DNA from: Patescibacteria group bacterium
GTDB taxonomy: Bacteria; Patescibacteriota; Patescibacteriia; UBA2196; GWA2-42-15
Length of the DNA stretch: 56,923 nt
Direction: 5' to 3'
NCBI GenBank assembly: GCA_022709795.1
Contig: JAKLID010000001.1
Coordinates: 1 to 56,923, forward strand
The notes beneath the pieces were generated by a model. It saw only the letters and a list, made by a program, of their open reading frames with translations. It was not told where the DNA came from and made no database searches. The position numbers were made by a program, and so were the translations under genes. Below are positions 6,069-26,456 of this stretch, piece after piece. Position 1 is the stretch's first letter. Each line of letters starts with the position of its first letter.

Positions 6069-6180
6069 AAAAATTTACTGAGTTCAGTATCTTTAATCCC
6101 AACTTGATAGCTGTCGAGGCGGGATTTTTTGGCTAAAATAAGCCTAACTCTTTACAGTTAGGTTAAAAAATACTAAGCTA

Positions 6181-6621
6181 ATGGTAAGTTGTGGACATCA
6201 ATTAACCAATAACAATATGTTTGGTAAAAATCAAACCTTAGAAGATAATGGCTCCGGAGTGGATACAATTATCGGGCCATCAGTCAGCGTGGAGGGAAAT
6301 TTCAAAGGTGAGGGTAATATTATCGTGGAGGGAGAAATCAAGGGCAGCCTAAAAACTAAGGGCTATCTAAAGGCCTCGGAGAGCTCGGTAATCGTGGCTA
6401 GTGTGGTAGCTAATGAGGCGGAAATTGCCGGGCAGCTGGTCGGCAATATTAAGATTAAGGCTGGTTTGGAAATCAAGGCCACGGCGGTTATCCAGGGAGA
6501 TATTGAGGCGCAAACAATTGAGGTGGCCAACGGCGCGATTATTAATGGTAATATAAAAATGAAGATGGAGGCTGGAGAAAAGATGGTGGCCAACGGCGGC
6601 TCAGTTGAAGAGGAAAAATAA
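6181..6621 (+). CDS. Bactofilin family cytoskeletal protein
   Basis: The repetitive beta-helical pattern is typical of bactofilin/DUF583: SVSVEGNFKGEGNIIVEGEIKGSLKTKGYLKASESSVIVASVVANEAEIAGQLVGNIKIKAGLEIKATAVIQGDIEAQTIEVANGAIINGNIKM. An alternative ATG start lies at 6217. Confidence 0.85.
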   Translation: MVSCGHQLTNNNMFGKNQTLEDNGSGVDTIIGPSVSVEGNFKGEGNIIVEGEIKGSLKTKGYLKASESSVIVASVVANEAEIAGQLVGNIKIKAGLEIKATAVIQGDIEAQTIEVANGAIINGNIKMKMEAGEKMVANGGSVEEEK

Positions 6622-6646
6622 TTTTTAAGATACTAAAAACACCAGC

Positions 6647-7408
6647 ATGTATTGCTATATTTACGATATTTTCACCAATCAAAAGAAATATGAAAAGCAA
6701 CTCTTGAAAATAGAGTTGCTTTTGGCAGATTTGGGCATTGCCGGCAAAACTTATAAATTGAATGTCTTGAAAAATTTGGAGGGAGTGATCGCTGAGGCAG
6801 TGAATGAAGGTATAAAAACAATCGTGGCGGTCGGCAATGATCAAACAGTGAGTAAGATAGTCAATCTGATCATTGACCAGGGTCTAACCTTGGGTATTAT
6901 ACCAGTCGGTGAGAATAATCTGCTGGCTACGTCGCTTGGTATAAAATCTAGCGAGGAGGCCGGCCAAATATTGGCGGCCAGAAAAATCGGGCGCCTGGAC
7001 GTGGGAAAAATCAACGATCAATATTTTCTTCTGGGGCTAGAATCTGGTGATAGTAATATTGTTTTTGATTTAAAGGACTATAATATTCAACCCAGGGATA
7101 ATAATGGGGCGGTGGGCCTGTATAATATTAATATTAGTAATTATGAGTTTCGGGCTGATCCGGAAGACGGGATAATGGAAGCGGTTTTCGCCCCAAAAAA
7201 ACAGGTCTGGTGGCAAAATATTTGGCATAAAGAGGGGGCAAAACCGGAAAGAATCAGTGTTTTCCCGGTCAGAGGACTGATAATCAACCACCAGAAAAAA
7301 CCAATTACTATCAATGTTGACCGCCAAAGAACGATCAAAACGCCGGCGGTGGTAGAAGTATTAAAGAATAAATTAAGAGTAATTATCGGCAAAGAAAAGA
7401 GTAACTAA
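6647..7408 (+). CDS. Diacylglycerol-kinase catalytic-domain (YegS/BmrU-like) lipid kinase family protein
   Basis: IVAVGNDQTVSKIVNLI (a degenerate GGDGT motif) and LGIIPVGENNLLATSLGI match the DAGK_cat / NAD-kinase-like fold. Substrate is unknown. Confidence 0.65.
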   Translation: MYCYIYDIFTNQKKYEKQLLKIELLLADLGIAGKTYKLNVLKNLEGVIAEAVNEGIKTIVAVGNDQTVSKIVNLIIDQGLTLGIIPVGENNLLATSLGIKSSEEAGQILAARKIGRLDVGKINDQYFLLGLESGDSNIVFDLKDYNIQPRDNNGAVGLYNINISNYEFRADPEDGIMEAVFAPKKQVWWQNIWHKEGAKPERISVFPVRGLIINHQKKPITINVDRQRTIKTPAVVEVLKNKLRVIIGKEKSN

Positions 7409-7757: not shown

Positions 7758-8529
7758 TGTTTTTAATTTCTTTAATTTTGGCGGGCAAAGAGTCGGTTGG
7801 CACGACAACGGTTTGATTTTTGGGGAAATGCTTTTTGAAAACATAGAGTTGCTGCAAGGCGGTGAGTAGGGTACTCAGAAACCAATAGAAGGTCAGACCA
7901 GCAGGCAAGCTAATGCCAATCACAAAAGTGAAGATCGGCATAAAATAAAGGGTTTGTTTATTGAGAGCAGAGGTCAAATTCTCATCTTTGGCGCCGGCAA
8001 CTTTTGGCTGGCGCTTGGTGATCAACATGCTCGAGGCCCAATATTGAGCCAGGGCGGAGAGGGCGGCCAAGGGGATACTTTTGGCGGAGAAATCTAGAAA
8101 ACCAAAGGCTATGGCATTGATCTGACCGGGATTATAAACAAAAGAGTAGAGGGCGCTCAAGCTTTCCGGCTTGAGCCCATCGCGAAAAACATTATAAACC
8201 GCAATTAAAAAGGGGAGTTGAATCAAAAGGGGCAGACAAGAGGAGGCAGGGGAAATTTTTTCGGTTTTGTAAAGAGCCATTAATTCGCGGCCCATAATCT
8301 CTTGATTGCCTTTATATTTGGCTTTGAGGGCATCGACCTTGGGTTGGAGGTCTTGCAGTGATTTCTGGGCTTTGATTGATTTGACAGATAAGGGGTAGAG
8401 AATCAGTTTGATGAAAATAGTCATCAAAACCACGGCAATACCAATATCTTGAAAAGAAACGGTATTATAGAAAAAAACTAGGAGGTTAAAAAGCGGCTGA
8501 TAGATAAAAAGATGGTAAAGTTGAATCAT
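7729..8529 (-). CDS. yidC: Membrane protein insertase YidC (short form)
   Basis: Position in the rpmH-rnpA-yidD-yidC cluster. Multi-TM protein with motifs LYPLSVKSIKAQKSLQDLQPKV, ELMALYK...ISPASSCLPLLIQLPFLIAVY and PAGLTFYWFLSTLLTALQQ. Confidence 0.9.
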   Translation of the reverse strand: MIQLYHLFIYQPLFNLLVFFYNTVSFQDIGIAVVLMTIFIKLILYPLSVKSIKAQKSLQDLQPKVDALKAKYKGNQEIMGRELMALYKTEKISPASSCLPLLIQLPFLIAVYNVFRDGLKPESLSALYSFVYNPGQINAIAFGFLDFSAKSIPLAALSALAQYWASSMLITKRQPKVAGAKDENLTSALNKQTLYFMPIFTFVIGISLPAGLTFYWFLSTLLTALQQLYVFKKHFPKNQTVVVPTDSLPAKIKEIKNNDTNQQKLN

Positions 8530-8535
8530 AGTTGG

Positions 8536-8796
8536 TTATTTTATTGGATCATAACCGCCACGAGACCAAGGATGACAGTGGATAATCCGCTTAATTGATA
8601 GCAATAGGCCTTTAAACAGGCCATACTGCTCAAGCGCACTAATACTATAATTAGAGCAGGTGGGGTAGAAACGGCATTGGCCATGGGGTTTGACTAATTT
8701 ACCCCAGAAACTATGGTCAAAAGACAGGGTTTTTTGATAAATTTTTATAAAAAAAATGGCTAATCTACGTGGAAATAAATAAACTTTAGGGATCAT
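8536..8796 (-). CDS. yidD: Membrane protein insertion efficiency factor YidD
   Basis: CRFYPTCSNYSISALEQYGLFKGLLLSIKRIIHCHPWSRGGYDP is the YidD signature. A 4-nt overlap with rnpA is typical. Confidence 0.9.
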   Translation of the reverse strand: MIPKVYLFPRRLAIFFIKIYQKTLSFDHSFWGKLVKPHGQCRFYPTCSNYSISALEQYGLFKGLLLSIKRIIHCHPWSRGGYDPIK

Positions 8797-13030: not shown

Positions 13031-15253
13031 TTATTTTTTAATATATTCTTTGGAGTCTTCCAGTTTGATACTGATCAGTTTGGAGATACCATCTTCACCC
13101 ATAGTGACGCCATAGAGCAGCTTGGCTTTTTCCATAGTGGCGCGGTTGTGGGTGATGACAATAAATTGTGTTTTGTGGGAGAGGTCGGAGAGAATTTGAG
13201 CGAAGCGAAGAGAATTGGATTCATCGAGAGCGGCATCAACTTCGTCCAAGACAACAAAGGGTGCGGGATTGGAGGAAATAATAGCGCAGATCAGAGCAAT
13301 ACTCGTCAGGGCGCGTTCGCCGCCCGAGAGGATGCTGATGGATTTTAATTTTTTGCCGGGCGGGGTGGCGTAGATTTCAATACCGCTGTAGCCGTCTTTG
13401 GATTTTTCTTGAAAGAAATTGGTGGCCGGAGAATTGTCAGCAAGAGATTCTTCCTCGGCTGGCTTGAAATCTTCCTTGATCAGGGAGAGCTCTGCTTGAC
13501 CGCCGTTGAAGAGAATTTTAAAATATTTTTGGAAATAAGTATTAATCTCGTTAAAAGATTCTGACATTTGTTTTTTGATAATCTGTTCCAAATCAGTAAT
13601 TACTTTTTTGAGGGAAGCAATTGTCTGGTTTAGATCATTGGTCTGAGCGGTCAAAAAATCATAACGCGCCTGAACCCGCTGATACTCTGTTTCCACTTCC
13701 GGATCTAGGCCGCCAATGATTTCTAGTTGGCCCTTGAGCCGGTTTATTTTATCTAGGATGGAGAAATTTTGTGCCTGGTCACCCTGGGGCAGGGAAGCGG
13801 TTCGGAGCACTTCGAGGGAGCCCAGTTCCTGAATAATTTCTTGTTTCAAATCAAAGCGTTTGGTTTCGACTCTGGCCAGAGAGATTTTGACTTCATTGAG
13901 CTGATTGTTGGAAAGAGAAAAAGCCTGCTGGGCGGCTTGATATTTTTGCTGGGTTTGCCAGAGGGCAGAGCGTTTGGCCTCATCTTCAGAGAGGAGGTGC
14001 TGAATTTTTGTCTGTAGTTCTCCGGCCTGATGATCCAGGTCGGCGATTTTTTTATCCAAAGCTCGCAGTTCCTGGGGCGGTTCAGGTTTGTTTGCCACAG
14101 CGTCTTCGGCGCGCAAATAGGGCTTGATGAAGAGTAGGAGTGATTTTACGCGGTCATTCAGATCAGCCAGAAGTATTTTGAAACTAGACGCTGCCAAGCC
14201 TCGCCCCAAATCAGCCAAAGCTTTTTGGCCCAGGGAATTGATATTTTCAATTTGTTGGTTGAGCTCAGTTATTTTATCCAAAGAGAGGGTTTTGGTATTG
14301 GTATGGGGCCGGGTTTTTTCAACGAGGGATGATTTCATGGTCCAGAGTTCTTCTCTGGTGCGCATTTTCTTATCCAAAACAGCCTGCTGCTCCAGCCGCA
14401 ATTTTTCTATTTCTTGATTTAAGCCGCTATTTTTGACAATATTATCCAGCTCAGCCTCTAATTTTTTCCACTGATCCTCGTGGATTTTTTTATCAGCCTC
14501 AAGTTGGTTTATTTTGCTCAATTCTTGCTGGTAATCACGATCAATAGTTTGCCAGTAAGCGCTGTAATAGTTGAGGCGCAACTCATTGAGCTCAGCCTCA
14601 ATCTCCTTGCGTTTGTTGAGTTTTTTGATCTGACGAGTGAGGAGATTTAATTGGGGTTCCATTTCTTTGAGACGGATGTTGGCGGTAGTGAGGTTTTGCC
14701 AGACCTGATTGAGCTTGACAATGGTTTGATTTTTTTTGATTTGATATTGTTTGACGCCGGTGGCTTCGTCAAAAAATTCCTTGCGCTCTTCTGGGGTGGC
14801 GATGAGAAAATTATCAATCATACCCTGGCCGATGATGGCATAGGTGCGGTGGCCAAAATTGGCTTGAGTGAGGAGCAAATTAATGTCGGCGAGTTTACTT
14901 TTGCCACCATTGATCAAATACTCACTTTCGCCATTACGATAGATTTTCCTGGTAATCAAAAGGTCGCGGTAATCAATAGGCACTTTCCCGTCAGTATTAT
15001 CCAATTCCATAGAGACCTCGGCCAGACCCAGGCGGGCTTTTTTGTCAGAGCCGGAAAAGATGACATCCTCGCTTTTTTTGCCACGGAGGGTCTTGATACT
15101 TTGTTCACCCATGACCCAGCGGAGAGAGTCGGCAACATTGCTTTTGCCAGAGCCATTGGGGCCGACCACGGCAGTGATGCCACTCGTGAATTCCAGGGTG
15201 GTTTTTTTGGCAAAAGATTTGAAGCCGTTGATTTCTAGCTTTTTTAAGTACAT
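13031..15253 (-). CDS. smc: SMC-family chromosome condensation ATPase, unusually short (~740 aa), no recognisable hinge
   Basis: N-terminal head MYLKKLEINGFKSFA...VVGPNGSGKSNVADSLRWVMGEQS, C-terminal head LSGGERALTSIAL and FVVLDEVDAALD, with continuous coiled-coil-like sequence between them. The ATG at 15253 is preferred over the TTG at 15268. Confidence 0.85.
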   Translation of the reverse strand: MYLKKLEINGFKSFAKKTTLEFTSGITAVVGPNGSGKSNVADSLRWVMGEQSIKTLRGKKSEDVIFSGSDKKARLGLAEVSMELDNTDGKVPIDYRDLLITRKIYRNGESEYLINGGKSKLADINLLLTQANFGHRTYAIIGQGMIDNFLIATPEERKEFFDEATGVKQYQIKKNQTIVKLNQVWQNLTTANIRLKEMEPQLNLLTRQIKKLNKRKEIEAELNELRLNYYSAYWQTIDRDYQQELSKINQLEADKKIHEDQWKKLEAELDNIVKNSGLNQEIEKLRLEQQAVLDKKMRTREELWTMKSSLVEKTRPHTNTKTLSLDKITELNQQIENINSLGQKALADLGRGLAASSFKILLADLNDRVKSLLLFIKPYLRAEDAVANKPEPPQELRALDKKIADLDHQAGELQTKIQHLLSEDEAKRSALWQTQQKYQAAQQAFSLSNNQLNEVKISLARVETKRFDLKQEIIQELGSLEVLRTASLPQGDQAQNFSILDKINRLKGQLEIIGGLDPEVETEYQRVQARYDFLTAQTNDLNQTIASLKKVITDLEQIIKKQMSESFNEINTYFQKYFKILFNGGQAELSLIKEDFKPAEEESLADNSPATNFFQEKSKDGYSGIEIYATPPGKKLKSISILSGGERALTSIALICAIISSNPAPFVVLDEVDAALDESNSLRFAQILSDLSHKTQFIVITHNRATMEKAKLLYGVTMGEDGISKLISIKLEDSKEYIKK

Positions 15254-15445
15254 AATATAGAAACTCAAAACTCAAAATTTAAAACTCAAAAGTATTGATA
15301 AGCATAAACAAAAGAGACCGGGATGGGTCACTTTTATTATATCAGGAAAAGGGTTTTGGGCAAAAGAGAGGTGGGGTGGTAATTAATTTAATGAGTGTCG
15401 GAGTCCCTGGCGGAGACTCCGACGGGGCGGAAAAATTCAATTTCA

Positions 15446-15530
15446 GATAACGTATCGGCACATGCGAAGTTGTGTAGCAATTTGCGCGGAGGCTTTCGGA
15501 GAAAACCGCAGCCGCATGTGCCTTGTTATC
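15446..15530. repeat. attC-like structured site 3 (distal end of the array)
   Basis: GATAAC-GTATC-GGCACATGCG ... CGCATGTGCC-TT-GTTATC: an imperfect palindrome with an asymmetric unpaired spacer. The left arm is nearly identical to that of site 2. Confidence 0.6.
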
Positions 15531-15594
15531 GGATGTAGCGAAAAGTTTTTGTTTTGCCGAATGGCAAAATGATTATTTGGGGGTATTTTAATTT

Positions 15595-16194
15595 TTATTT
15601 TATTTCAATATTTTTTACGATTTTATCAAAATCTGACTTTATTTCTGGAGTCTTTGATGTGTAGTTTGCGCTTATACGGACTATGCCACCTTTACTATTC
15701 TTAAATATGATAGCGTCTACTGTACCCACGCCATCAAATATTGAATAGGAATACTGAATTGCCGACTTTCCACCAACCGCAATGTTTTTGTATTTTGAGT
15801 TAAAACTTGATTCTGGGTTATTTTTTGCCCAATTCAACGGCGAATCATTATTTTTGTTCTCATAAGATATAATTTCAATTCCCGGAGTGTCGCCTTCAAA
15901 TTTCTTTTCACCAATCCACAAATATGCGCGCTCAACAACCTTTCCGCCCATATCTTGATTTTCATTTAAATTATACTGAGCTGGATATTCAAAACTCACA
16001 CCGATTTTTTCACTTGCAAATATCTTACTACTAACATGTTTTGACGTGGATGAAACAACTTCTTTTCTTAGTTCAGTCTCTGTTTTTTTTGATTCAGTGG
16101 TAACTGTTTTTGGGAAATTACCCTCTGAATTTGAGCAACCAGAAAGCATGATGGATGTGCTTAGTGCGAATGCGATGCAAAATTGCTTTTTCAT
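15595..16194 (-). CDS. Cassette ORF: lipoprotein of unknown function
   Basis: MKKQFCIAFALSTSIMLSGC carries a lipobox (LSGC). The start is taken at the ATG at 16194, because the upstream part of the tracked ORF lies in the repeat frame. I recognise no family. Confidence 0.7.
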   Translation of the reverse strand: MKKQFCIAFALSTSIMLSGCSNSEGNFPKTVTTESKKTETELRKEVVSSTSKHVSSKIFASEKIGVSFEYPAQYNLNENQDMGGKVVERAYLWIGEKKFEGDTPGIEIISYENKNNDSPLNWAKNNPESSFNSKYKNIAVGGKSAIQYSYSIFDGVGTVDAIIFKNSKGGIVRISANYTSKTPEIKSDFDKIVKNIEIK

Positions 16195-16263
16195 TTTGTT
16201 ATATAAAAAATAAAATACCCCCAAATAATTAACGCCGAAGGCGCAAAAACTTTTTGCTATTTC

Positions 16264-16444
16264 CGATAACGTATCGGCACATGCGAAGTTGCGCCGTGGA
16301 TTATTGATTATTTTTGTTAATATCGCTTTATTTGATTATACCACTAAACTTACCATTTCGTCAGCGCAATTTGGGAGAGGAAATTTTGCATACCTTTAAA
16401 ATATAATTGCGCAAAATTTCTGAACCGCATGTGCCGTGTTGTCT
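16264..16444. repeat. attC-like structured site 2
   Basis: CGATAAC-GTATC-GGCACATGCG ... (long loop) ... CGCATGTGCC-GT-GTTGTCT. The loop contains the GCAATTTGGGAGAGG motif, which is related to loops of site 3 and the satellite site at 38658. Confidence 0.6.
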
Positions 16445-16560
16445 GATGTATTTTTTCATCTTCTGCTTAATTGCACAAAACTTGTTTATTCTACTAGAAA
16501 ATTTGATTTTTTAAATTAAAAGTTTTTGTTTTGCCTTTAGGTAAAACAGATTATTTGGGG

Positions 16561-17703
16561 CTATTTTTTATTTTTTATCAAAATTTGTCCTCTTCCTATC
16601 CACTCAATCAACTCGTTGGCTTGGGCGTCGATATTCAAAAGAAGTTCTGGGTAGCATGGCTGCAATTCGGCGTTAAAAATCAACAACTCTTTTAATCCCC
16701 GTGCGTAGTCAAATCCTAGCTTTTCGCAATTCTGTAAAAATTTTCTTCTGAAAGGTATTAGCTTTTCTTTTCGTGAATCTGATACAACTGAAAAAGTTTT
16801 CATATCCGATACAATCCTATGAAAAACTCGCAATAATTCCATTGTAATTCGGCAGAGCTGAATATCTGAGCTATTGGTAATTTCTGAAAATTTTGTAATC
16901 AGTGGCATGATGTGATCGACCTCGTAGGCTTTGTCTGAATTGTTCACCAACATCAATAGTCTTTCTATGCCCACAACTGAAAATGACCAAAAATTTTCCC
17001 AATGAACTAAATCGACGATTGTGCCGTCCTTGTAAATTGGTCGCCACAACAAATTTTCGATTGAGGCTATATCCAATGGCTCATCCAAATTATCCGTTTT
17101 GTATAGAATTTCATTTCGATAACCCCACGCAACGGGTGGAGTGAAATTTAGAGCCAATAGAGTTGTTCTTGTTTGGTCGGGTATGAATTGTTCGTCGTTG
17201 ATTCCAAATTCTTTTGCAATCTTGATAAATGGGTCGGCTTCGAGATTTTTATCAAACTTATATTTTCCAGCAGTTATTTCTTCGGCTTTTCCGCCTGATA
17301 AATATGAAATAACGAAGCGTTGTGGCTCTAGCCCCAACTCATTTATCAAAAACTCGAAAATTTTTCTGATAGTAAAATCGGCGATGTCTTTGCGTTGCTC
17401 ATCCGTAACATCCTTTCCGCCAACAAAGCCTGACACATCAGCCATATCAAAAAGCAAAAGATGGATATCGTCCATGGCATCATTGAAGTCATTAACTCGT
17501 ATCACTTGTTGAATTGTTGAAAAGTTGTAGGCCTCAGAATTGTCTAAATAATTACCGAATTTTTCAAGAAATGGCGCCTCACCAAAACTTATGTTGAAAT
17601 TTCCAGGAAAGCCCTTGTTCACAATCAAAGAGCGAGGAATCTTTTGAACTCCTGAATATTTAGAAAAATTTTCAATTTTATTCCTTAACTCTAAATATTT
17701 CAT
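16561..17703 (-). CDS. Cassette ORF: stand-alone alanyl-tRNA-synthetase N-terminal (catalytic/tRNA-recognition) domain homolog, divergent
   Basis: By-eye collinear similarity to the AlaRS N-domain: LELRNKIENFSKYSG ~ AEIRQAFLDFFHSKG; ISFGEAPFLEKF ~ TNAGMNQFKDVF; STIQQVIRVNDF...HLLLFDMADVSGF ~ TSQRCVRAGGKHNDL...HHTFFEMLGNFSF; AWGYRNEILY ~ GPCGPCTEIFY; VVGIERLLMLV ~ GMGLERIAAVL; CRITMELLRVFHRIV ~ LRVIADHIRSCAFLI. No editing or C-Ala domains are present. Confidence 0.65.
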   Translation of the reverse strand: MKYLELRNKIENFSKYSGVQKIPRSLIVNKGFPGNFNISFGEAPFLEKFGNYLDNSEAYNFSTIQQVIRVNDFNDAMDDIHLLLFDMADVSGFVGGKDVTDEQRKDIADFTIRKIFEFLINELGLEPQRFVISYLSGGKAEEITAGKYKFDKNLEADPFIKIAKEFGINDEQFIPDQTRTTLLALNFTPPVAWGYRNEILYKTDNLDEPLDIASIENLLWRPIYKDGTIVDLVHWENFWSFSVVGIERLLMLVNNSDKAYEVDHIMPLITKFSEITNSSDIQLCRITMELLRVFHRIVSDMKTFSVVSDSRKEKLIPFRRKFLQNCEKLGFDYARGLKELLIFNAELQPCYPELLLNIDAQANELIEWIGRGQILIKNKK

Positions 17704-17829
17704 AAAAAATAAAAAATAGCCCCAAATAATCCCGCCGTAGGCGGAAAAACTTTTAATTTAAAAAATCAAATTTTCGTCTTTGTTCATTGCACGGAACCCG
17801 AAATTACCACCAAAGATGAAAAAATATTT

Positions 17830-17927
17830 CAGACAACGTTCGCGTGTATGCGATGTTTTGTGGAGCGTAGCGGAACAAAATATGGGTGGAGCGACCTTAG
17901 GAGCGTAACCGCATACACGCTGTTATA
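17830..17927. repeat. attC-like structured site 1
   Basis: AGACAAC-GTTCGC-GTGTATGCG ... CGCATACAC-GCT-GTTATAC. The architecture matches sites 2 and 3, with compensatory changes in the inner stem. Confidence 0.55.
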
Positions 17928-18124
17928 CGCTGTTCAAAAAATATTTTTCATTCAATTTCATTTTGACAGGCTTTTTATTCAATAATCATAAATTTGTTTT
18001 TTTGTTTTGGATTTTGGGCAGAGGGGTTAGGGGTGAATGCCCAAATCCAAAACTCCTTATTCTGTTTGAGGGAGGGGCAAGAGGGGAACTAAAGGGGTGA
18101 ATTGCCCCGACCGAAAACACTTCT

Positions 18125-20419
18125 TTAATCAAAATCTGTCTGATCTTTTTTATTAAAGTTATTCAGAAATAAATCAATTGCCTCTTTATTGTTTTGATAT
18201 TGCTCTGAGTTTTCTTCTTTTATTCCTTCCAGTTTTGTTTTTAACTCCTCTAAATCAAGGAAATCTGACAAACTTTTATAATTAAATCTTTTTGTAACCC
18301 TCGTGCCATAGTCACCAATAGTTTGGCTTCTGCTTTCCGAAACGAATTTAGCTATGAAGACCAGTAATTTTTGATTGGCATCACTAATTGTTTTTATGAA
18401 GTCTCCCCACTTACTATCTTTGCTCCATTCTTTCCAACGGTACAAAATGTAAAGTAAGTTTTTATGTTTCAATAAATCATCAGGGTTAGTTTCTTCGATT
18501 TTTTCAAGACATAATTTTTGTAAATCTTCAATTTTATCTTCCGGCACAACAAATTCGTCCGAATCTTTGCCCTTTTCTTTTCTTGATGACTCCAAAGAAA
18601 CTTTTTGTATTGGACCGAAGAGACCTTTGGACTGCGGTATAGCTTCTTTTAATATTTCATAATTTTTGCTTTTATCAGACTCTCTTTTTAGCAACTGATA
18701 AATTATTCTCATCAAATCCATATCTATTCCGAAATCCCACATCCCAACTTTTTCTTCGGGCAAATCATCGGAAATGTTGAAAAGTGTCTTAACTACATTC
18801 TTTGCATTATCTTGCGAAATACGAGTTTGATCACCTGTAAAATCTTGAATCCTTTGTAAAACCTTCCTGATTTTCTTTTTCTCAATGTACTCCCTAATAA
18901 TCTTTTCAAGATCTTCTGTTGAATTTGTTTTGCTTAAAATTTCCTCAATTTCAAACTGGCTTAATTCTTCCTCGTCACCACCAGGAATTAGCGTAAAGTA
19001 GCTATCAAAATTATTTGTAGCACATACCCTTAAGTTATTGCTCCAAATAGACTGCCATTCGTGTCCGTGCGTTGAATAACCGTACTGAAAAATGCCGTCA
19101 ACTTGTGGAAATAATCTTTTTAATAACTCAAGAACAGATTCTTTTATTTCGCTTGGTAGTGCATTCAACGCTTTTTCAATTTCATCTTTTCTTGGATTGT
19201 TATCCCTTGAACTTCGCTCGTTCCTATCAGTAGAAGTAAAAATCACACTTTTATCACGCATGAATAAGTAAAAATCCGGCGCAAAAATTCTAATTGCCTC
19301 AATGGCAATGAAATCTATCGGGTTTACTTCCATTATCTTACCTTGATACATCTGAGAGATATTAAATTCCAAACTGCTTGCGAACCTTTTTACATCTCGT
19401 ATGTTTTTGAAAAAATCTTTGAAACCTGAATGATAAACATTTACCCAATACGGTTCGTCTTGTCCAAAATATTTTTGTGCAGATTCAGGTAATATGCTCA
19501 AAATCCGATCTAGCTCTTTGAAAAGAAATGTGGATATTTTTGATGGTTTTGCAAAAGGCACGTTAAAATGCACTTGGACTATCTTATTCAAATAATCCTT
19601 TCCTGAAACACCAATTTGCTCTTCAAGATTTTGCTCAACAATTTTTCTATCAAAAGCCAAGAGATAAATTGTATTTGGAAAGTCTGCGTTTATCCGAATT
19701 AGTCTAAAAATTTGTTTAATTTCTGATTGATTTAGTCTATCAATATCGTCAATGACGATCACAATTTTTTTATTTCGTTCCAAAAGCTCTTTTTTTATTT
19801 CGTTTTTTAATTCTGTAATAGATTTTTTATTCACTAAATACTTCTGTTGAAAAAAATCTGACAAACCAAGCAAAAAATCTTTAAATAATCCAACCAAAAA
19901 TAAAACGAGACCTATCCCAAAAAATGTATATTTAATCCAGTTTGCCGGTATCTCTAACCATTGTATTATTTGGCTGGACGAAATACCGATTAAGCCCAAG
20001 CCCAGAAGAACTTTTGATGAAAGAATACTTAAAGTTTCCTTTTTGGGTGTAAGACTTAGTAATTTAGAGTACAGCTTCAGTTTTTCTGCAATCTTTTTAT
20101 CTTTTGATGAGCCATGTTTAATCTCAAGTTCTTTGGCTATTTCGTTAAAAAAGTGAGTACTGAGATTTTTTTCTTCGGAAAAGCCCCACGGATTAAATCC
20201 AATAATTGTTGGTTTATCGTCGTTTTTTGTGGCCTCAATGTACTCATTGGCTAGGTTAATAACTGACGATTTTCCAGATCCCCATTCACCATAAATCGCA
20301 ATAACAAGACTTTCTTTTTCTTTCCAATCCAAAAGTGCTTTCCCAAGATGTTGAGAAAATCTTTTTCTGCTTAGGAAATCATCTTTTTCGGTTTCGATTG
20401 GTTTGTCGTAAATAAACAT
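18125..20419 (-). CDS. KAP-family P-loop NTPase with inserted transmembrane helices
   Basis: Walker A IAIYGEWGSGKSSVINL. Two hydrophobic helices (VLLGLGLIGISSSQII, FFGIGLVLFLVGLF) lie between Walker A and Walker B (IVIVIDDIDRL), the hallmark KAP topology. The start codon is 2 nt after the res stop. Confidence 0.9.
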   Translation of the reverse strand: MFIYDKPIETEKDDFLSRKRFSQHLGKALLDWKEKESLVIAIYGEWGSGKSSVINLANEYIEATKNDDKPTIIGFNPWGFSEEKNLSTHFFNEIAKELEIKHGSSKDKKIAEKLKLYSKLLSLTPKKETLSILSSKVLLGLGLIGISSSQIIQWLEIPANWIKYTFFGIGLVLFLVGLFKDFLLGLSDFFQQKYLVNKKSITELKNEIKKELLERNKKIVIVIDDIDRLNQSEIKQIFRLIRINADFPNTIYLLAFDRKIVEQNLEEQIGVSGKDYLNKIVQVHFNVPFAKPSKISTFLFKELDRILSILPESAQKYFGQDEPYWVNVYHSGFKDFFKNIRDVKRFASSLEFNISQMYQGKIMEVNPIDFIAIEAIRIFAPDFYLFMRDKSVIFTSTDRNERSSRDNNPRKDEIEKALNALPSEIKESVLELLKRLFPQVDGIFQYGYSTHGHEWQSIWSNNLRVCATNNFDSYFTLIPGGDEEELSQFEIEEILSKTNSTEDLEKIIREYIEKKKIRKVLQRIQDFTGDQTRISQDNAKNVVKTLFNISDDLPEEKVGMWDFGIDMDLMRIIYQLLKRESDKSKNYEILKEAIPQSKGLFGPIQKVSLESSRKEKGKDSDEFVVPEDKIEDLQKLCLEKIEETNPDDLLKHKNLLYILYRWKEWSKDSKWGDFIKTISDANQKLLVFIAKFVSESRSQTIGDYGTRVTKRFNYKSLSDFLDLEELKTKLEGIKEENSEQYQNNKEAIDLFLNNFNKKDQTDFD

Positions 20420-20421
20420 AG

Positions 20422-23097
20422 CTAGTTTTTAAATGCCTCCGCCAACTGTTTAAAGCTCGTCGGTTTGTACTTGTCCCATTCTTCCTGCTTCACATAAAGC
20501 ATTTTGTAGGCGATTTTTTTCTGTCTTTCGCTTGCGTCCTCGCACCATTGCCCCAACCTCTTTATCTTTTCAATATCGTCTAAATCTTCTCGTCCTTTTG
20601 TTTCCACAATATAAATCGTTTTATTGTCCGTTTTTACGAAAAAGTCGGGATAATAACTGGAAATTGCCCCGCTCGCGTTTTTATAATCAATTTTGAAATG
20701 AATTTCATAATAATTTTTAGCGAAAGAAATCACATCGTCAGCGCCTTCTAAAAAGTCGGCAAATTCAAGTTCAAAATCGCTATCCCCGACAATTTTATTG
20801 AATACGCTCTTTTTGGGTAGCAAATATTTTTTATCGGTAACAACAAACGGTCTTGCACTGCTTATTTTGAGATAATTTTTTATTTCCGTGTCGCCAACAT
20901 CTTGCACGGTCAGATTATTTATTTCCTTTTTGAATGTTTCCACGATAGTTTTTACCGCTTCCAACTCGGATAAATTTCTCAAAATATTTGCGTCATTCAG
21001 ATCAACTTTTTCGCTGAATAAATCGTTGCCGATAAATTCTTTTACTTTGCCAAAAAGTATATCGTAGCACCCAAAAAGGCGCAGTTCTTTCATTATTCTT
21101 TGCACAAAAAATCCGACAACGCTTTGATAATTTGGTTCAACAGTACTATTCAAAATCGTTGTGTGATGAAGTTTGTCATCAATTACTTCCTTAAAAACAA
21201 TCTCTTTCTTTTCTTCCTCTGAAAATTGTTTTATTGAGATTTTTTCGTGCTTAAATCCGGCAACATTCAATAAATTAAGATTTTTATATTCTCTTTGTAT
21301 TCTCGGCGTTAAAACCGGCAATTCAATGTCTAAATTTTCAATGTCTTTTTTTACATTCTGATTATCAACTTCAATAACAGTCGGTGTAATCGGCGAGCCG
21401 GAACGATCCATTTTTCGTTTTTCTAGCTCAACGCCTTCCGCCTTGATTGATTCCACAAACTCCATAAAGGCGGGCGTGCCGATAACGCTCACATATTCCT
21501 CAACATCTTGACCAAAAAACATTCGACGAAGACCGCGACCCAATGTCTGCTCCGGCAATATCTTTGAATCAGAGCCATACGGGCGTAAACCAACGATTGT
21601 CGTTACATTTTTGACATCCCAACCCTCTTTAAGCATTAAAACGGAAACTATCACCTTGTAGGGGCTTTCCATGCTGTCTATCTCATTAGCTTTCTTTCTC
21701 AAATCTTGCAGTTCTTTTTCCTTTTTTCCGGTAACTGTTTCCGATATTTCACCGCTCTTGTTTGTATGAATGGTTAAAACCGCGCCTTTCAATTGCGGAT
21801 AACTTTTTTCCAAAAACTCCGCCACATCGTCGCAATTTTTTGTGTCGTCCGTCATTATGAAAAGAATCGATTTTTTGCCGGTCGGCTCAAGTTCCTTGTA
21901 TGTTTTTCCCCATTCTTCAACTCCTAGCCGGATGTAGTCCTCGTATTTTTCAGAAAATATTGAGCTTTGTTTTTCTTGCAATTTCGCTCGGCTCGCCTGA
22001 TCCGGCAAAACCGGATTTTTTACCACACCCTGATGTATTGCTTCAACCAAAGGATAATCAGAAACGGTTTGCACAAAAATTTCCCCACGATTATTTTTTG
22101 GCGTAGCCGTAACATCAATTTGCAAAGCTAATTTTTTGCCCTTTTGCAATAATCTGTTGTGGATATCTTCAATAGATTTAAACCACGCCATTTTTGGATC
22201 GTGGATATGGTGGGCTTCGTCGTTGATAACCATTAACTCATCAACATCGCGGACTATTTCGCCCAAATCAATTTTTGAATCATTGGTTTTGCCGACAACC
22301 TTGTCGCCCAAAAAATAATCTGATGTATCTTCATCTTCAAAACTCGCTTCGTTGATACTACCTTCATAAACTCTATGGATGTTAGTCAGAAAAATATTTC
22401 CCGATTTTGAAATCGTGCCAACTTCGTCCTGTAAATGTAGTTTGATTTGAAAATCATCTTGCCAATTTTGCCCACTATATCCGTTATCCGGCAAAATCGG
22501 ATCTTCGTAAAATATTTTCAATCCTTCAAAATCGGTTTTAATTCTATCTAAAACGATAATGTTCGGCGTGATAAGCAAGAAGTTTTTAGAAAGTTCTGAG
22601 TTTTCCTCGTAGAGTTTGTGAAAATATGACCAAGCCAAGAGCAAGCTCATTACTTTTGTTTTTCCGCTTCCTGTTGCCATTTTAATCACAAAGCGGAGCC
22701 AGTCCTCGGTAAACATATTCGGGCTTACCCGACCCAATTTATCAAACTTGATCAAATCGTATTTATTGGCAACTTTCTCAACATCATAAATCCAAATAAT
22801 CGTTTCTACCGCTTCTCGCTGGGCGTAATAATATTGAAAGGCAACACTTGTGCCGTCTTTGGCAAAAATTGTGTGCGGTTCTTTAAACCACCAATTCAAG
22901 AGTGCTTTTGAAGTTTCGCTCGCGCCTTCGTAGTTGTTTTTTCGCCACTCAGCTACTTTTTCCCGAAGTTCCGGCACAAAAGGTGGCAAAAGTTTTTCAT
23001 AACCTTCTTTGCGCAAATCTTCATCAGCCGGAAACCACCTGATTGACGGATCGAGTATTTGGAATTTATCTTTGGGAAAATTTTTGTGTAATGCCAT
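20422..23097 (-). CDS. res: Type III restriction enzyme Res subunit (SF2 DEAH helicase plus C-terminal PD-(D/E)xK nuclease)
   Basis: Motif I KMATGSGKTKV, motif II VINDEAHH, motif VI LPEQTLGRGLRR, and C-terminal YYPDFFVK...IYIVETKG. The start is set at the ATG at 23097, 4 nt after the mod stop; the longer tracked ORF overlaps mod. Confidence 0.9.
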   Translation of the reverse strand: MALHKNFPKDKFQILDPSIRWFPADEDLRKEGYEKLLPPFVPELREKVAEWRKNNYEGASETSKALLNWWFKEPHTIFAKDGTSVAFQYYYAQREAVETIIWIYDVEKVANKYDLIKFDKLGRVSPNMFTEDWLRFVIKMATGSGKTKVMSLLLAWSYFHKLYEENSELSKNFLLITPNIIVLDRIKTDFEGLKIFYEDPILPDNGYSGQNWQDDFQIKLHLQDEVGTISKSGNIFLTNIHRVYEGSINEASFEDEDTSDYFLGDKVVGKTNDSKIDLGEIVRDVDELMVINDEAHHIHDPKMAWFKSIEDIHNRLLQKGKKLALQIDVTATPKNNRGEIFVQTVSDYPLVEAIHQGVVKNPVLPDQASRAKLQEKQSSIFSEKYEDYIRLGVEEWGKTYKELEPTGKKSILFIMTDDTKNCDDVAEFLEKSYPQLKGAVLTIHTNKSGEISETVTGKKEKELQDLRKKANEIDSMESPYKVIVSVLMLKEGWDVKNVTTIVGLRPYGSDSKILPEQTLGRGLRRMFFGQDVEEYVSVIGTPAFMEFVESIKAEGVELEKRKMDRSGSPITPTVIEVDNQNVKKDIENLDIELPVLTPRIQREYKNLNLLNVAGFKHEKISIKQFSEEEKKEIVFKEVIDDKLHHTTILNSTVEPNYQSVVGFFVQRIMKELRLFGCYDILFGKVKEFIGNDLFSEKVDLNDANILRNLSELEAVKTIVETFKKEINNLTVQDVGDTEIKNYLKISSARPFVVTDKKYLLPKKSVFNKIVGDSDFELEFADFLEGADDVISFAKNYYEIHFKIDYKNASGAISSYYPDFFVKTDNKTIYIVETKGREDLDDIEKIKRLGQWCEDASERQKKIAYKMLYVKQEEWDKYKPTSFKQLAEAFKN

Positions 23098-23101
23098 AAT
23101 A

Positions 23102-25324
23102 TTAAATATTAACCTCAATAACTTTTGTCGTATCGTTGCCGAATATGTCAATCACCTTGATTGCGATTTTCATTTTGCCTTTTGGCGCATCTTTGAAAGC
23201 TGAAGTTAGCTCAAGCGTTCGGTCTTTTTTGGTTCTGAAAGATTGCCATTCGTTTTCAAAAATATAACTTCCTGTCCATTCTTCTTTTTCTTCGCCTGTT
23301 CTTTCGTCAACTACGCGCACGATTTCTCTTTTACTTTCAAAATCAAAATCCACTGACCAATAATCAATCCAGTCCGTCCATTTTTTAGTCAATACTTCAC
23401 GCTCAATAATATCGGTGTTTTTATCTTTGGAAATTTTTATCACCTGGCCATTTTCAATGATTATTTTATTTCCGCCGGATTGTAATTTTTCTTCCACTTC
23501 GCCAGTGTTATCTTGGTTATAGAAAACCGAAAAATCGGATAGCTCAATCGCTACTTCTTTGGCGTTGCCTCGTCCGCGAATTATTGGTTTAACTTCAATG
23601 TAGGCGATATCATAAAATTTGACCTGTCCTTTTTCCACCGCTTTTTTATCAAAAACTTCGCGGGGAATGACTTTGAATTGTACATCAATGCCGAGCTTTT
23701 TGGCGCTTTCAAAATCTAGCCCCATTTCATAGTCAAATCCCAAAACATCGGCTTTGGTTATTTTCTTTTCTTTGCACTCACTGATTATTTTTTCCAGAAA
23801 ATCATTGGTAATAGGCGAATCAATTGATCCAATGGCGATTAATCTATCTCTCTTTTTTCCGACAAAAGCATTAAAAGAATCAACTGGTTCGGCTTTGTAA
23901 GCTGATAAAATAAGTTTTATAAATTCTTTTTCTTTATTTTCTCGTTGGATTCTTTTTTCTTCTTCACGCAAATTTTCATTCACAGTCAAATACTTTGCTC
24001 GTTCGTATTTACCGATGTTTAAAATCTCAAACGCCCGAAAATCCTTGCCGGCTTTTTTAAGTTCTCTCTGCACGCCAATCATTCTTTTGCGAGTAGTGTG
24101 AATAGAAAATTTGCCGACATCGGAAGCAATCCACTTTCTACCCATTTTTTCAGCGACAGCAATCGTGGTTCCTGATCCATTAAAAAAGTCTGCTACTAAA
24201 TCGCCCTCTTTTGTAGATATATCTATAATTCTTTGTAAAAGTGGCTCTGCGTTTTCTGTTGGATAACCAGTTTTGAAAGCATAGCCTGCAACATCAGTCC
24301 AGTTTGTGTCCAAGGTGTCTGTGTTTTTTGCCTTTACCCAGTATTGTAGCTTATTTGGATTGTTTGGATTTATTCGAAGCAAACCTTCTTTATACATTTT
24401 CTGTATATTGTCTTCGCTGAATTTAAAATGCTTTCCTGTAGGTGGATAAAATATTTTCCCATCAATTACTCTTTCTCTTGGTCGTCTTTCTCCGCTACTA
24501 TCATCTGAGGCACGCCAGTAGCCCGCGCGTTCATTTTCCAGTACTTTGGTAATATGTTGGAATTTTGAATTATTCTTAAAATAGACAAACAAGGAGTCGT
24601 TCGCCGTTGGCAGTGAGACTTTACCCTGTTCGGTAATATTTTTCTTTATCCTGTTAATGACAATTTCGCTCTGAAATTTATCTTTACCAAAAATCTCGTC
24701 TAACATTGCCTTGGTATAATGACCCCAATGCCAATCAATACGAAAGAAAAAAATACCATCATCAGCGAGCAAATCTTTCATTAGTTTAACTCTTTCATAA
24801 AGCATTGATAGAAAGGTGTTTCCGCCACTACCCCAAGTATTGCGATATGCAAATTCTTCAATTATAGACGGCGATTTTTGAATTGTTTCGCCTTCACCAA
24901 TTGATACTCCAATTGAATAATCTAACCCTGCACTAAATGGCGGATCAATATAAATTAGTTTTAGCCCGCCTTCTGCTTCAATTTGTTTTCGCAAAGGACC
25001 ATTTTTGAGCGATGATAAAATCAACTTATTGTCGCCCCAAATAAGTTTATTTGACCAACCCTTGATCTGTCTGCCAGAAGTATCAAATAGTGTAGTTTGT
25101 GCTGTGATTTTTTCTTCGCTTCTCGGCTCGTCAATATGCTCAATTGCCTGAAAAGGCAAAACCATATTTTCTACTTCATCAGTTTTGCCATTCCACAAAA
25201 GCTCAACCTCACGTTCGGTATCAAAAAGCAAAAACCGGTATTTTTCCGGCAATGGTTTGCCCGATTCCAAATACTTTATAACATCTCTTTTTTCGTTGTC
25301 GGTGAGGTTTAGTTTATTGCTCAT
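23102..25324 (-). CDS. mod: Type III-like N6/N4 DNA methyltransferase Mod (beta-class motif order) with ~300-aa C-terminal extension
   Basis: LIWGDNKLILSSL, catalytic motif IV LIYIDPPFSAG upstream of AdoMet motif I DFFNGSGTTIAVA, collinear with EcoP15I Mod. The extra C-terminal region ends in VIDIFGNDTTKVIEV. Confidence 0.9.
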   Translation of the reverse strand: MSNKLNLTDNEKRDVIKYLESGKPLPEKYRFLLFDTEREVELLWNGKTDEVENMVLPFQAIEHIDEPRSEEKITAQTTLFDTSGRQIKGWSNKLIWGDNKLILSSLKNGPLRKQIEAEGGLKLIYIDPPFSAGLDYSIGVSIGEGETIQKSPSIIEEFAYRNTWGSGGNTFLSMLYERVKLMKDLLADDGIFFFRIDWHWGHYTKAMLDEIFGKDKFQSEIVINRIKKNITEQGKVSLPTANDSLFVYFKNNSKFQHITKVLENERAGYWRASDDSSGERRPRERVIDGKIFYPPTGKHFKFSEDNIQKMYKEGLLRINPNNPNKLQYWVKAKNTDTLDTNWTDVAGYAFKTGYPTENAEPLLQRIIDISTKEGDLVADFFNGSGTTIAVAEKMGRKWIASDVGKFSIHTTRKRMIGVQRELKKAGKDFRAFEILNIGKYERAKYLTVNENLREEEKRIQRENKEKEFIKLILSAYKAEPVDSFNAFVGKKRDRLIAIGSIDSPITNDFLEKIISECKEKKITKADVLGFDYEMGLDFESAKKLGIDVQFKVIPREVFDKKAVEKGQVKFYDIAYIEVKPIIRGRGNAKEVAIELSDFSVFYNQDNTGEVEEKLQSGGNKIIIENGQVIKISKDKNTDIIEREVLTKKWTDWIDYWSVDFDFESKREIVRVVDERTGEEKEEWTGSYIFENEWQSFRTKKDRTLELTSAFKDAPKGKMKIAIKVIDIFGNDTTKVIEVNI

Positions 25325-25499
25325 AGTTTTTTATTACCTATTGTTATTGTATTCGTTTTCCCCTTATAAATAAATCGTTTTCGTAGCGAAGCGGAGAAAA
25401 CACCTTATACCCCTTTCTAATAAATAAAAAAACAAATTTATTCCCCTTTTTAAAAAGCCTGTCAAAATTTCTTATTATCGGAAAAATATTTTTTGAATT

Positions 25500-25577
25500 G
25501 CGTATAACTCGTTTATATGCGAAGTGTTGGCGTAATAGTGACCTTTTATTGTCTATTAGGCGAACTTCGTTGTATAA
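25500..25577. repeat. Recombinase-proximal structured site 0 (attI-like position)
   Basis: GCGTATAAC-TCGTT-TATATGCGAAGT ... ACTTCG-GTTGTAT. The left arm is the same type as the attC-like sites and the right arm is truncated. The right box overlaps a TATAAT (25573-25578) about 48 nt upstream of the recombinase ATG. Confidence 0.45.
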
Positions 25578-25625
25578 TTAAATAGAGGATGTTAATAAGT
25601 TAATATTAACAAAACTCAAGTAAAT

Positions 25626-26456
25626 ATGCAAAATTTTAATTATTTGTTAAAAACAGAAGAAGAACTAAAATTGAGAAACTATAGCCGAAAAACTATAAAA
25701 AGTTATTTAGCGTGTTTACAAAAATATATTGATTTTTTAACTAAGAATTCAACGAGCATAAAAAATTTGTCATCAGAAGAAAAGGTAAAAAAGTTTTTGT
25801 TAATGCATCAAGATAGGGGCGATGCCGGACAAACCATAAATTTGTATTTAAATGCTATTAAATTTTTTTATCGCGAGATTTTAAAATCAAATGAGAAAAT
25901 TGATTTAAAGTTTGCCAAAACCAGTAAAAAATTACCAGAGGTTTTATCGCGGTTAGAAATTGAAAAAATTTTAGCCAGTATTGAAAACAAAAAACATAAA
26001 TTATTAATTGCTTTAAGTTATGGCGCGGGACTGCGGGTGAGCGAGGCAATAAATTTAAAGATTAAAGATATTGATTTAGAAGAATTAACCATTCATTTGA
26101 GAGAAGCTAAAGGCAAGAAAGATCGTTTAACTATTTTTTCAGGAAAAATTAAAAAAGATTTGCAAAGAATAATGGTTGGCAAGTCTGCCAATGATTATGT
26201 TTTCGAAAGCGAAAGACAGGGTAAATTAACAGAGAGAACAGCGCAAAAAGTTTTTTATAAGGCCTTGAAAAAAGCGGGGATAAAAAAGCCAGCTTCTTTT
26301 CATTCTCTACGGCATAGTTTTGCCACCCATTTATTGGAAAATGGCGTGGATGTGCGCTATGTGCAGGAGCTTTTGGGGCATGCGAATATCCGGACAACGC
26401 AGATTTATACCAAGGTGATAAATCCGAGTTTGAAGAATATAAAGAGCCCGCTATAA
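25626..26456 (+). CDS. Tyrosine site-specific recombinase (Xer/IntI-like, SAM-like N-domain)
   Basis: N-domain LRNYSRKTIKSYLACLQKYIDFL. Catalytic boxes GLRVSEAINL (R), KGKKDRLTIF (K), HSLRHSFATHLL (HxxR) and LLGHANIRTTQIYTKV (H...Y). The spacing between the K box and the HxxR box is Xer-sized. Confidence 0.9.
   Translation: MQNFNYLLKTEEELKLRNYSRKTIKSYLACLQKYIDFLTKNSTSIKNLSSEEKVKKFLLMHQDRGDAGQTINLYLNAIKFFYREILKSNEKIDLKFAKTSKKLPEVLSRLEIEKILASIENKKHKLLIALSYGAGLRVSEAINLKIKDIDLEELTIHLREAKGKKDRLTIFSGKIKKDLQRIMVGKSANDYVFESERQGKLTERTAQKVFYKALKKAGIKKPASFHSLRHSFATHLLENGVDVRYVQELLGHANIRTTQIYTKVINPSLKNIKSPL

Follow-up and report, generated by a model that had tools for sequence, protein, structure and literature searches.

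Sedentary chromosomal integrons, of the kind represented by the Vibrio cholerae superintegron with its Vibrio cholerae repeats (VCRs), are the closest described counterparts of the element considered here, an array of three gene cassettes framed by long inverted repeats. The array lies in a stretch of 56,923 nucleotides (nt) from a Patescibacteria group bacterium (GTDB lineage UBA2196; assembly GCA_022709795.1, contig JAKLID010000001.1, positions 1 to 56,923 of the forward strand), referred to below as the window. As in these integrons, the recombinase gene and a co-oriented array diverge from each other, an attI-like site is found with different first cassettes, boundaries fall at the core, and unrelated cargo is held between conserved imperfect-palindrome repeats with AAC...GTT cores; many cassettes are promoterless, some have their own promoter, and defence genes are part of the cargo. 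Unlike in sedentary integrons, the repeat runs 28-145 nt past the crossover into the next cassette, the conserved 5' leader of each cassette complements its 3' trailer, and the recombinase lacks the IntI-specific domain. With moderate confidence, these frames can be regarded as the outer part of an extended attC-like site that would fold in the bottom strand of single-stranded DNA (ssDNA), in an integron-like system of Patescibacteria.

In the window, the three minus-strand cassettes are located upstream of the plus-strand tyrosine recombinase gene (25626-26456). Each cassette opens directly past the G of a G|TT core; at its other end lie the cassette's own AAC core and an attC-like inner hairpin. 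The array and the open reading frames (ORFs) that it carries are as follows.

25626-26456, plus strand: tyrosine recombinase gene, 276 amino acids (aa), with the Pfam families Phage_integrase and SAM_4
25509-25625, no strand assigned: attI-like region, with its putative crossover at AAC 25506-25508 (G|TT on the minus strand)
17837-25507, minus strand: cassette 1, with type III mod, res and KAP NTPase genes (Pfam); bounds taken from the AAC/GTT cores
23102-25324, minus strand: type III mod gene of cassette 1 (Pfam)
20422-23151, minus strand: res gene of cassette 1 (Pfam)
18125-20419, minus strand: KAP NTPase gene of cassette 1 (Pfam)
16270-17836, minus strand: cassette B, with an ORF at 16561-17703 (380 aa) that has no Pfam family
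15451-16269, minus strand: cassette C, with an ORF at 15595-16194 for a small lipoprotein with a weak PsbP_2 match
17835-17924, plus strand: attC-like site 1, comprising AAC, 4 nt, a 10-bp stem, a variable loop, the stem, 1 nt and GTT (geometry scan)
16268-16440, plus strand: attC-like site 2, with a long variable loop (geometry scan)
15449-15527, plus strand: attC-like site 3, the final site of the array (geometry scan)

The three attC-like sites share one geometry, namely AAC, 4-5 nt, a 10-bp stem, a variable loop, the stem, 1-2 nt and GTT, and the loop of site 1 includes GGAGCGTAGCGG on the plus strand. For the 380-aa protein of cassette B (16561-17703, minus strand), nothing above noise was found in Pfam or NCBIfam.

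From the letters of this DNA alone, an earlier note had claimed that long inverted repeats frame each cassette ORF. They do: the 5' and 3' ends of all three cassettes are inverted repeats of 70-145 nt, listed here on the plus strand, which is the bottom strand of the array, antisense to the ORFs.

25422-25508, plus strand: 5' arm of cassette 1, from three inverted blocks and alignment
17922-18007, plus strand: 3' arm of cassette 1, with TG 17931-17932 facing TT 25498-25499
17698-17837, plus strand: 5' arm of cassette B, with mini-hairpin 17732-17744 (CCGCC-GTA-GGCGG) and TT 17827-17828 as one side of the internal loop
16438-16582, plus strand: 3' arm of cassette B, with mini-hairpin 16528-16548 (GTTTTGCC-TTTA-GGTAAAAC) and TG 16447-16448
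16203-16270, plus strand: 5' arm of cassette C, with mini-hairpin 16233-16243 (CGCC-GAA-GGCG) and TT 16260-16261
15525-15598, plus strand: 3' arm of cassette C, with mini-hairpin 15552-15569 (TTTTGCC-GAAT-GGCAAAA) and TG 15534-15535

The arms consist of collinear inverted blocks that are 89-100% complementary: 15525-15551 with 16244-16270 (89%) and 15572-15598 with 16203-16229 (96%) in cassette C; 16438-16462 with 17813-17837 (92%), 16497-16527 with 17745-17775 (100%) and 16549-16582 with 17698-17731 (97%) in cassette B; and 17922-17949 with 25481-25508 (93%), 17960-17977 with 25451-25468 (100%) and 17988-18007 with 25422-25441 (95%) in the mod-res-KAP cassette. Local alignment of the arm pairs gives scores of 28.5, 44 and 35.5, against a mean of 9-11, a standard deviation of 1.5-1.7 and a maximum of 18 for partners shuffled by a first-order, dinucleotide-based procedure, so that the similarity of the arms is above chance. 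When the 160 nt after each GTT are compared with the reverse complement of the next 10 kb, the top match lands in the cognate arm; this match extends to the next AAC core in cassettes C and 1, and covers the outer blocks only in cassette B. Between the conserved blocks, hairpin segments of differing sequence occupy matching positions (15552-15571, 16230-16243, 16528-16548 and 17732-17744); the hairpin at 17732-17744 is flush with its blocks, and the other three of cassettes B and C have 1-3 unpaired junction bases. The 3' arm hairpin of cassette B contains a G·T pair on the plus strand only. The stop codon of the cassette B ORF (TAG, 16561-16563) falls within the 3' arm, and ORFs ending on the arm's own TAG are found in the window, L099, L117 and L170. 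In a class 1 integron taken as a control (L201), end complementarity amounts to 9 nt for the qnrVC1 cassette and 8 nt for the aac(6')-IIa cassette, and a canonical attC ends at the R box with about 7-9 nt of end complementarity. Here, complementarity begins exactly at GTT/AAC and extends over 28-145 nt across the family. The symmetry hence reaches well past the attC-like stems, as had been proposed, and its absence from the two canonical class 1 cassettes agrees with the view that it is not a feature of classical integron cassettes.

Such frames recur in homologous cassettes of relatives, where the earlier note had suggested looking for them. The closest homologues of the recombinase are found in UBA2196 (85% identity), Kuenenbacteria, Moranbacteria and similar groups, and cognate arms lie beside the following AAC core in the related genomes L001, L002, L005, L006, L010, L011, L012, L017 and L023. 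In these genomes, the arms measure 28-90 nt and fall into several sequence families unrelated to one another; the geometry AAC-N3-5-stem...stem-N0-2-GTT is also present. By an exact-pattern scan, the frame motif AAAAGTTTTT-N10-24-ATTATTTGGGG was found on at least 119 metagenome contigs, with no match in viral contigs; in true frame copies, 10-24 nt separate the two flanks, and the few matches with gaps of other lengths are due to chance. In 26 cases, two frame copies converge on a coding region of 0.7-3.7 kb, and the ORFs of these 26 framed cassettes belong to 12 unrelated families, including radical-SAM/SPASM enzymes and membrane proteins. Of 62 metagenome loci, 60 have all their attC-like sites pointing the same way, and 12 kb can contain up to 8-9 of these sites. 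No hairpin-less or ORF-less frames were seen among the examined loci, where the shortest arm-to-arm distance is 719 nt; this provides no support for, nor a strong test of, 'empty cassettes' or hairpins as secondary insertions.

The frames have a constant anatomy. The first 9 nt, corresponding to the R box, are variable among cassettes and mostly match within a cassette. Positions 10-11 after GTT are TG on the bottom strand in the 3' arm (TAG in L005 and L017, GGG in L012) and AA on the sense strand in the 5' arm (CA in L001), an asymmetry kept in at least 10 frame families and in 17 of 17 non-redundant metagenome cassettes. From the inside out, the layout comprises a 10-bp L stem, an asymmetric spacer (4-5 nt versus 1-2 nt), a 9-bp R stem with the crossover, a conserved 2-3-nt internal loop (TG or TAG facing TT) that sits 9 bp outside GTT, outer stem 1, two mini-hairpins and, outermost, outer stem 2, which reaches the start codon and the stop codon. 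Since a mini-hairpin interrupts each arm at matching positions, the folded strand would be a four-way junction. Past the internal loop, the outer stem measures 14-17 bp; in a 'long' family, of which cassette B is a member, it spans about 90 nt and contains an internal region specific to that class. The L stems pair perfectly over 10 bp and show no obvious extrahelical bases, and the asymmetry resides in the spacer and in the TG/TT loop.

A circular-junction model of cassette C, folded with DNA parameters, gives the four-way junction at -70.2 kcal/mol (z = -11.3). The same junction is returned by RNAalifold for 17 arm-pair constructs; its consensus has 62 pairs, and at 11 of them double compensatory changes are seen, e.g., AU to UA or GC in the ORF-proximal stem. 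Moreover, cognate arms are more alike than non-cognate ones, both near the R box and beside the ORF (permutation p < 1e-4). These data indicate that pairing between the arms of one cassette is maintained.

The frames are inverted repeats, and they also have a direction. Hairpins could be assigned to an arm in 112 frame copies, drawn from all matches in the examined sequence. GTTTTGC-loop-GCAAAAC is the hairpin of 38 of the 42 arms that have the TG signature and lie 3' of the ORF; among the 44 arms with the AA signature, which lie 5' of the ORF, 36 have GC-rich stems (TATCCGC, CCGCC, ATCCCGCC), a AAATTTCC-type stem being found in this group as well. The earlier note had described a small hairpin at the same place with a different sequence in every copy; this description holds within the window, and across the family it gives way to two arm-specific classes. 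In all 26 convergent pairs, one arm of each class is present, in the same orientation relative to the ORF. The loops and mismatches point to one strand. GNA triloops occur on the antisense (bottom) strand in 62 of the 112 copies, against at most five on the sense (top) strand, and the exact motif GCGN(N)AGC in 50 of 112 against 1 of 112, the loops frequently being exactly GCGAAGC on the antisense strand. This bias is present in both arms despite their inversion, over at least five unrelated stem families; related C-GNA-G loops are found in the window at 16233-16243 and 17732-17744. Outside the array, the strand count of GCGN(N)AGC (26 versus 8) is dominated by coding GC skew and so is uninformative on polarity. 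GCGAAGC and CCGAAGG are known as extraordinarily stable DNA mini-hairpins that occur at ssDNA priming origins, the motif being defined as d(GCGNAGC)/d(GCGNNAGC) (PMC13037366).

Regarding wobbles, the hairpin stems read on the antisense strand have eight G·T against one A·C. Mismatches between arms that give a wobble on the bottom strand number 11 in an automated tally, in which global alignment failed on short arms so that the ungapped arm listing is the reliable one, plus four counted by eye in L001, against two on the top strand; four of the 11 are the conserved G/A difference at position 11. At positions 10-11, the antisense strand would contain T·T and G·T and the sense strand A·A and C·A, the invariant T·G pair and T·T mismatch being present in at least 10 frame families. 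Folding energies computed with DNA parameters prefer the bottom strand in 13 of 17 constructs. On the evidence of these signatures, the frames are to be seen as polar rather than symmetric.

Comparison of loci bears on how the cassettes move. L011, whose recombinase is 62% identical to that of the window, is 98% identical over 17932-18126, the 3' arm region of cassette 1, and its 5' arm is 85% identical; these arms of the cassette 1 type enclose type III mod-res genes and an AAA_15 ATPase with at most 27% protein identity to the window genes. Cassette B is also present in L099, a 788-kb contig (88% nt and 91% aa identity), where the homologue of its 380-aa protein is encoded at 5985-7124, likewise within a cassette, and the homology of the cassette stops at 17840, a few bases from the R-box core (AAC 17835-17837). 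The 5' arm of cassette B accompanies unrelated ORFs in L102, L186, L170, L197 and L106, attC-like site 2 is found at 80-90% identity in L186, L109, L106, L025, L118 and L132, and the long arms of cassette B together with this attC site surround unrelated ORFs at 80-90% identity in L109, L118, L179, L186, L102 and L170. One inner attC is paired with variable neighbouring R boxes on its left-hand side. Matching R boxes within cassettes, the edge of homology in L099 and the pairing of one inner attC with different R boxes all place the crossover at the core, and indicate that cassettes move as units by exchange in G|TT. Around unrelated cargo, the arms and the inner attC make up a conserved chassis. 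At the recombinase end of the array, TCGTTTATATGCGAAG is kept beside AAC in the window and in L011, with the variant TCTTTATTATGCGAAG in L001, each with a different first cassette; the attI-like sequence is also found in metagenome contigs, again with different first cassettes, and in reverse orientation in L087, L150 and L189. This pattern is what would be expected of an attI serving as the insertion point of cassettes.

Several further elements were noted in or near the arms. Directly after the 5' arm, TTGACA-N16-TGaTAAGGT, a promoter-like site, is found in L087, L108, L119, L133, L148, L151, L162, L185, L187, L196 and L198. The cassettes with this site are radical-SAM/SPASM cassettes of 2-3 kb, accounting for 11 of the 26 framed cassettes, and are possibly multi-gene peptide-modification cassettes. 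In the many homologous cassettes with such a site downstream of the 5' arm, the arm would not be transcribed with the gene. Upstream of cassette ORFs, a conserved module is present at 25372-25412 in the window and to the left of attC units in L087, L089, L160, L187 and L195; it reads AAATCGTTTTCGTAGCGAAGCGGAGAAAACACCTTATACCCC on the plus strand, which on the sense strand is GGGGTATAAGGTG with a GTTTTC...GAAAAC hairpin behind it, and may represent a -10 element with a 5' leader hairpin. Between the 3' arm and the ORF stop codon, hairpins at 18004-18052 and 18076-18108 have variable stems and a conserved loop, like those in L001 (7801-7855), L011 (about 2205-2245 and 8525-8560) and L006 (about 5620-5650). 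The loop is G-rich on the plus strand, GAGGGG(N)TTA(A)GGGGTGAAT; variable stems around a fixed loop suggest a structured element or a site bound by a protein, and a quadruplex could arise from the G-runs. An arm of L011 that is otherwise 98% identical has 50 nt of GC-rich sequence inserted exactly at its TG/TT loop (2069-2119), and a GC-rich palindromic insert, CCCGCCGTAGCTTTAGCGTAGGCGGG, recurs in attC variable loops, namely in L151, L160 and, as a variant, L101; such inserts may be small mobile hairpins. At the far end of the array, a GC-rich hairpin (CGGAGTCCCTGGCGGAGACTCCG, 15395-15425) is located between the final attC-like site and an SMC-like gene (13031-15268), and the sequence past the final core, GTTATCTGAAATTG on the minus strand, still bears the AA that marks a 5' arm, as though a truncated cassette start closed the array.

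With regard to the recombinase, NCBIfam reports XerA/integron integrase at 223 bits, just above the XerA cutoff, and the integron integrase model TIGR02249 at 219.8, under its cutoff of 265 and in two stretches. The closest solved structure by sequence is IntI4/VchIntIA (2a3v, E = 2.8e-47), ahead of XerA (1e-41, 1e-39) and XerD. The alignment to VchIntIA covers residues 4-198 and 238-317 and leaves 199-237, about 39 aa, unmatched; all examined homologues from Patescibacteria are likewise short, with matches of about 740-820 nt that leave no room for an insertion and a shorter split match in L025. The additional domain of IntI is said to have been located near patch III by Messier and Roy in 2001. 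Residues 199-237 of VchIntIA are the region of this IntI-specific domain, which the IntI-like enzyme lacks. The domain is regarded as defining, and as required for attC recombination (PMC9668308; PMC4792948), and its presence around patch III is a criterion of IntegronFinder (PMC9668308). By the domain definition, the system is therefore not an integron; in its attI-like site, its co-oriented hairpin sites and its core boundaries, i.e., by every other integron criterion that can be tested, it would seem to behave like one.

The proposal of an extended attC-like site, with the frames as its outer part, brings these features together, and among the ideas of the earlier note it is the larger recombination substrate that the evidence favours. 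The structure would form in vivo, in the single-stranded bottom strand. In canonical integrons, too, the bottom strand is the one that is folded and recombined. The fold would be most complete in an excised circular cassette, in which the attC is flanked by the cassette's own two arms. The outer structure would nucleate and stabilise the folded site, and the mini-hairpins in particular may nucleate the fold or shield it against SSB (the protein binding single-stranded DNA), which flattens attC hairpins unless they are captured by the integrase (PMC8946536). It can further be hypothesized that the long regular stem and the external mismatch loop make up for the absent IntI domain, which reads extrahelical bases, by offering a regular duplex platform to the recombinase. 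The GC hairpin and T-run of the 5' arm may additionally terminate transcription and insulate each cassette.

Some observations weigh against this proposal. GNA loops are present in just two of the four mini-hairpins of the window; generic parameters fold both strands nearly alike (-70.2 versus -67.7 kcal/mol, with a mean difference of 0.5 kcal/mol over the constructs); and the counts of strand polarity come from related sequences, which are not independent. The support is wholly computational, and it is from there that we infer folding, recombination and the excised circle. Within the array, an attC is flanked by arms of two cassettes, so that a benefit from cognate pairing presupposes a free cassette intermediate. 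In addition, an extension of 75-145 nt far exceeds what the footprint of a recombinase needs, and a terminator function of the 5' arm is likewise compatible with the data.

A wider version of the extended-site proposal can be put forward, and it is a doubtful one. Patescibacteria would harbor a widespread, undescribed branch of integron-type systems, whose recombinase never had or lost the IntI domain and would act on a branched ssDNA substrate. The R and L boxes would lie within a four-way junction, with GNA mini-hairpins and the mismatch loop taking over strand selection and nucleation, and the mini-hairpins might prime second-strand synthesis on excised single-stranded cassette circles. Since the conserved chassis has start and stop codons at the edges of its arms, genes would, on this wider version, be placed into a pre-formed palindromic empty cassette.

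Transcriptional insulation has been considered as an explanation in its own right, and seems unlikely. The mini-hairpins with their T-rich flanks would be intrinsic terminators facing the ORF from both sides, the symmetry arising from module reuse. When read toward the ORF, all four hairpins of cassettes B and C are indeed terminator-like, the 5' arms have strong GC stems followed by ATTATTTGGGGCTATTTTTT, and many cassettes have the promoter-like site just downstream. On the sense strand, however, the 3' arm hairpin precedes AAAAAC instead of a U-tract. The 5' arm hairpins thus fit a terminator on the sense strand and the 3' arm hairpins on the antisense strand only, while the hairpin of L011 cassette 2, T-rich before and A-rich after, is a terminator in neither direction. 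Moreover, terminators need neither cognate co-variation, nor a TG/TT loop near the crossover, nor antisense GNA loops. Because of the 3' arm orientation and L011 cassette 2, termination was rejected as the sole explanation. As the 5' arm hairpin is a plausible terminator and is followed in many cassettes by a promoter-like site, an insulating role may coexist with the structural role.

It is just as improbable that the arms are a functionless by-product, in which attC hairpins lengthen by template switching or intramolecular gene conversion and evolve in concert. Blocks of 97-100% identity adjoining wholly different hairpins could be left by such copying, and so could the better conservation of arms than of cargo in L011 (98% and 85% against at most 27% at the protein level) and the extension of arm complementarity into coding sequence, where it gives a TAG stop to several unrelated ORFs. 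Copying nevertheless predicts perfectly complementary arms and inverted loops. A fixed mismatch loop, arm-specific hairpins and GNA loops on the same strand are found instead, in more than 100 copies and at least 10 families.

An RNA panhandle, in which the 5' and 3' untranslated regions of a cassette mRNA pair and control its stability or translation, had been suggested in the earlier note and is highly improbable. In cassettes B and C of the window, the arms adjoin the start and stop codons, and read-through transcripts from upstream would carry both arms. Mismatches, wobbles and GNA loops favour the antisense strand, however: the sense strand would have A·A and C·A at positions 10-11 and A·C at several stem positions, and its UUC loops are not of stable RNA types. 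Furthermore, a promoter-like site follows the 5' arm in at least 11 cassettes, and no Rfam family matches, the whole window at the gathering threshold giving 23S rRNA alone and a permissive scan of 15300-18300 giving no family. The idea of a symmetric context with invertible, phase-variable cassettes flipping through recombination of their arms is scarcely credible and was rejected, since, even though each ORF is bounded by long inverted repeats and the recombinase is weakly similar to tyrosine invertases (62 bits, with a cutoff of 222), the GC-rich hairpin and AA lie at the 5' end of the ORF and GTTTTGC and TG at its 3' end in all 26 framed cassettes, arm signature correlates with hairpin class, attC-like sites are co-oriented in 60 of 62 loci, and no inverted copies were seen among the examined loci.

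Seen as an extended attC-like site, the frames bear on how folded sites are recognized and how cassettes arise. Strand choice and folding are generally attributed to extrahelical bases, to the central spacer and to the variable loop; here, clear strand polarity is found in conserved features outside the R box, in a fixed mismatch loop and in two GNA mini-hairpins in a four-way junction. Cassette formation is an unsettled matter (PMC8618304), and a system in which both cassette ends are conserved and co-vary around unrelated cargo constrains models of it, with more than 100 natural examples. An IntI-like enzyme lacking the domain, beside arrays with core-bounded mobility, suggests either an ancestral form standing between Xer and IntI or an alternative way of recognizing a folded site. 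The list of integron-bearing phyla in a 2021 review omits Patescibacteria (PMC8618304), and a search of the literature on integrons or attC sites in Patescibacteria, the candidate phyla radiation (CPR) or Parcubacteria found resistome surveys only. As tools requiring the IntI-specific domain are unlikely to call these recombinases, such arrays may be reported without an integrase or missed.

The cassettes of an integron end in imperfect palindromes with RYYYAAC...GTTRRRY cores, and canonical attC folds into a hairpin with an R box, a central spacer left unpaired, an L box whose extrahelical bases direct strand choice, and a variable terminal structure. Compared with other known systems, the sites resemble canonical attC in their R and L stems, in a spacer that is asymmetric and a loop that varies, in their bottom-strand polarity and in a GC-rich apex able to carry GCGAAGC; this motif occurs both in the loops of the present sites and in the aac(6')-IIa attC. 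The aac(6')-IIa attC apex in L201 (5200-5245) reads CCGCGAAGCGG on the bottom strand, which puts the GCGAAGC motif at the tip of a canonical attC as well. Unlike canonical attC, the sites have a perfect 10-bp L stem that lacks obvious extrahelical bases, and to the outside of the R box they add a conserved internal loop and a further outer stem with a four-way junction. The canonical description includes none of these features (PMC8946536). The descriptions by Bouvier in 2009 and Nivina in 2016 reportedly lack them as well. With ssDNA initiation signals, such as the complementary-strand origin of phage G4, ssiA of RSF1010 and the sso of rolling-circle plasmids, the frames share strand-specific branched folds of 100-300 nt and GCGAAGC/CCGAAGG mini-hairpins resistant to SSB and nucleases (PMC13037366); in contrast to these signals, the frames have no primase, Rep or rolling-circle context, and a priming role would be pure speculation. 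The recombinase is Xer-sized and has the domain layout of Xer, and a stem as long and regular as that around the R box would look like a duplex arm, such as Xer/XerA meets at dif. Unlike Xer/XerA, it adjoins a cassette array with hairpin sites, and its best structural relative by sequence is IntI. Relative to classical integrons, for which it has not been described, the layout of arms, internal loop and mini-hairpins around each cassette is new.

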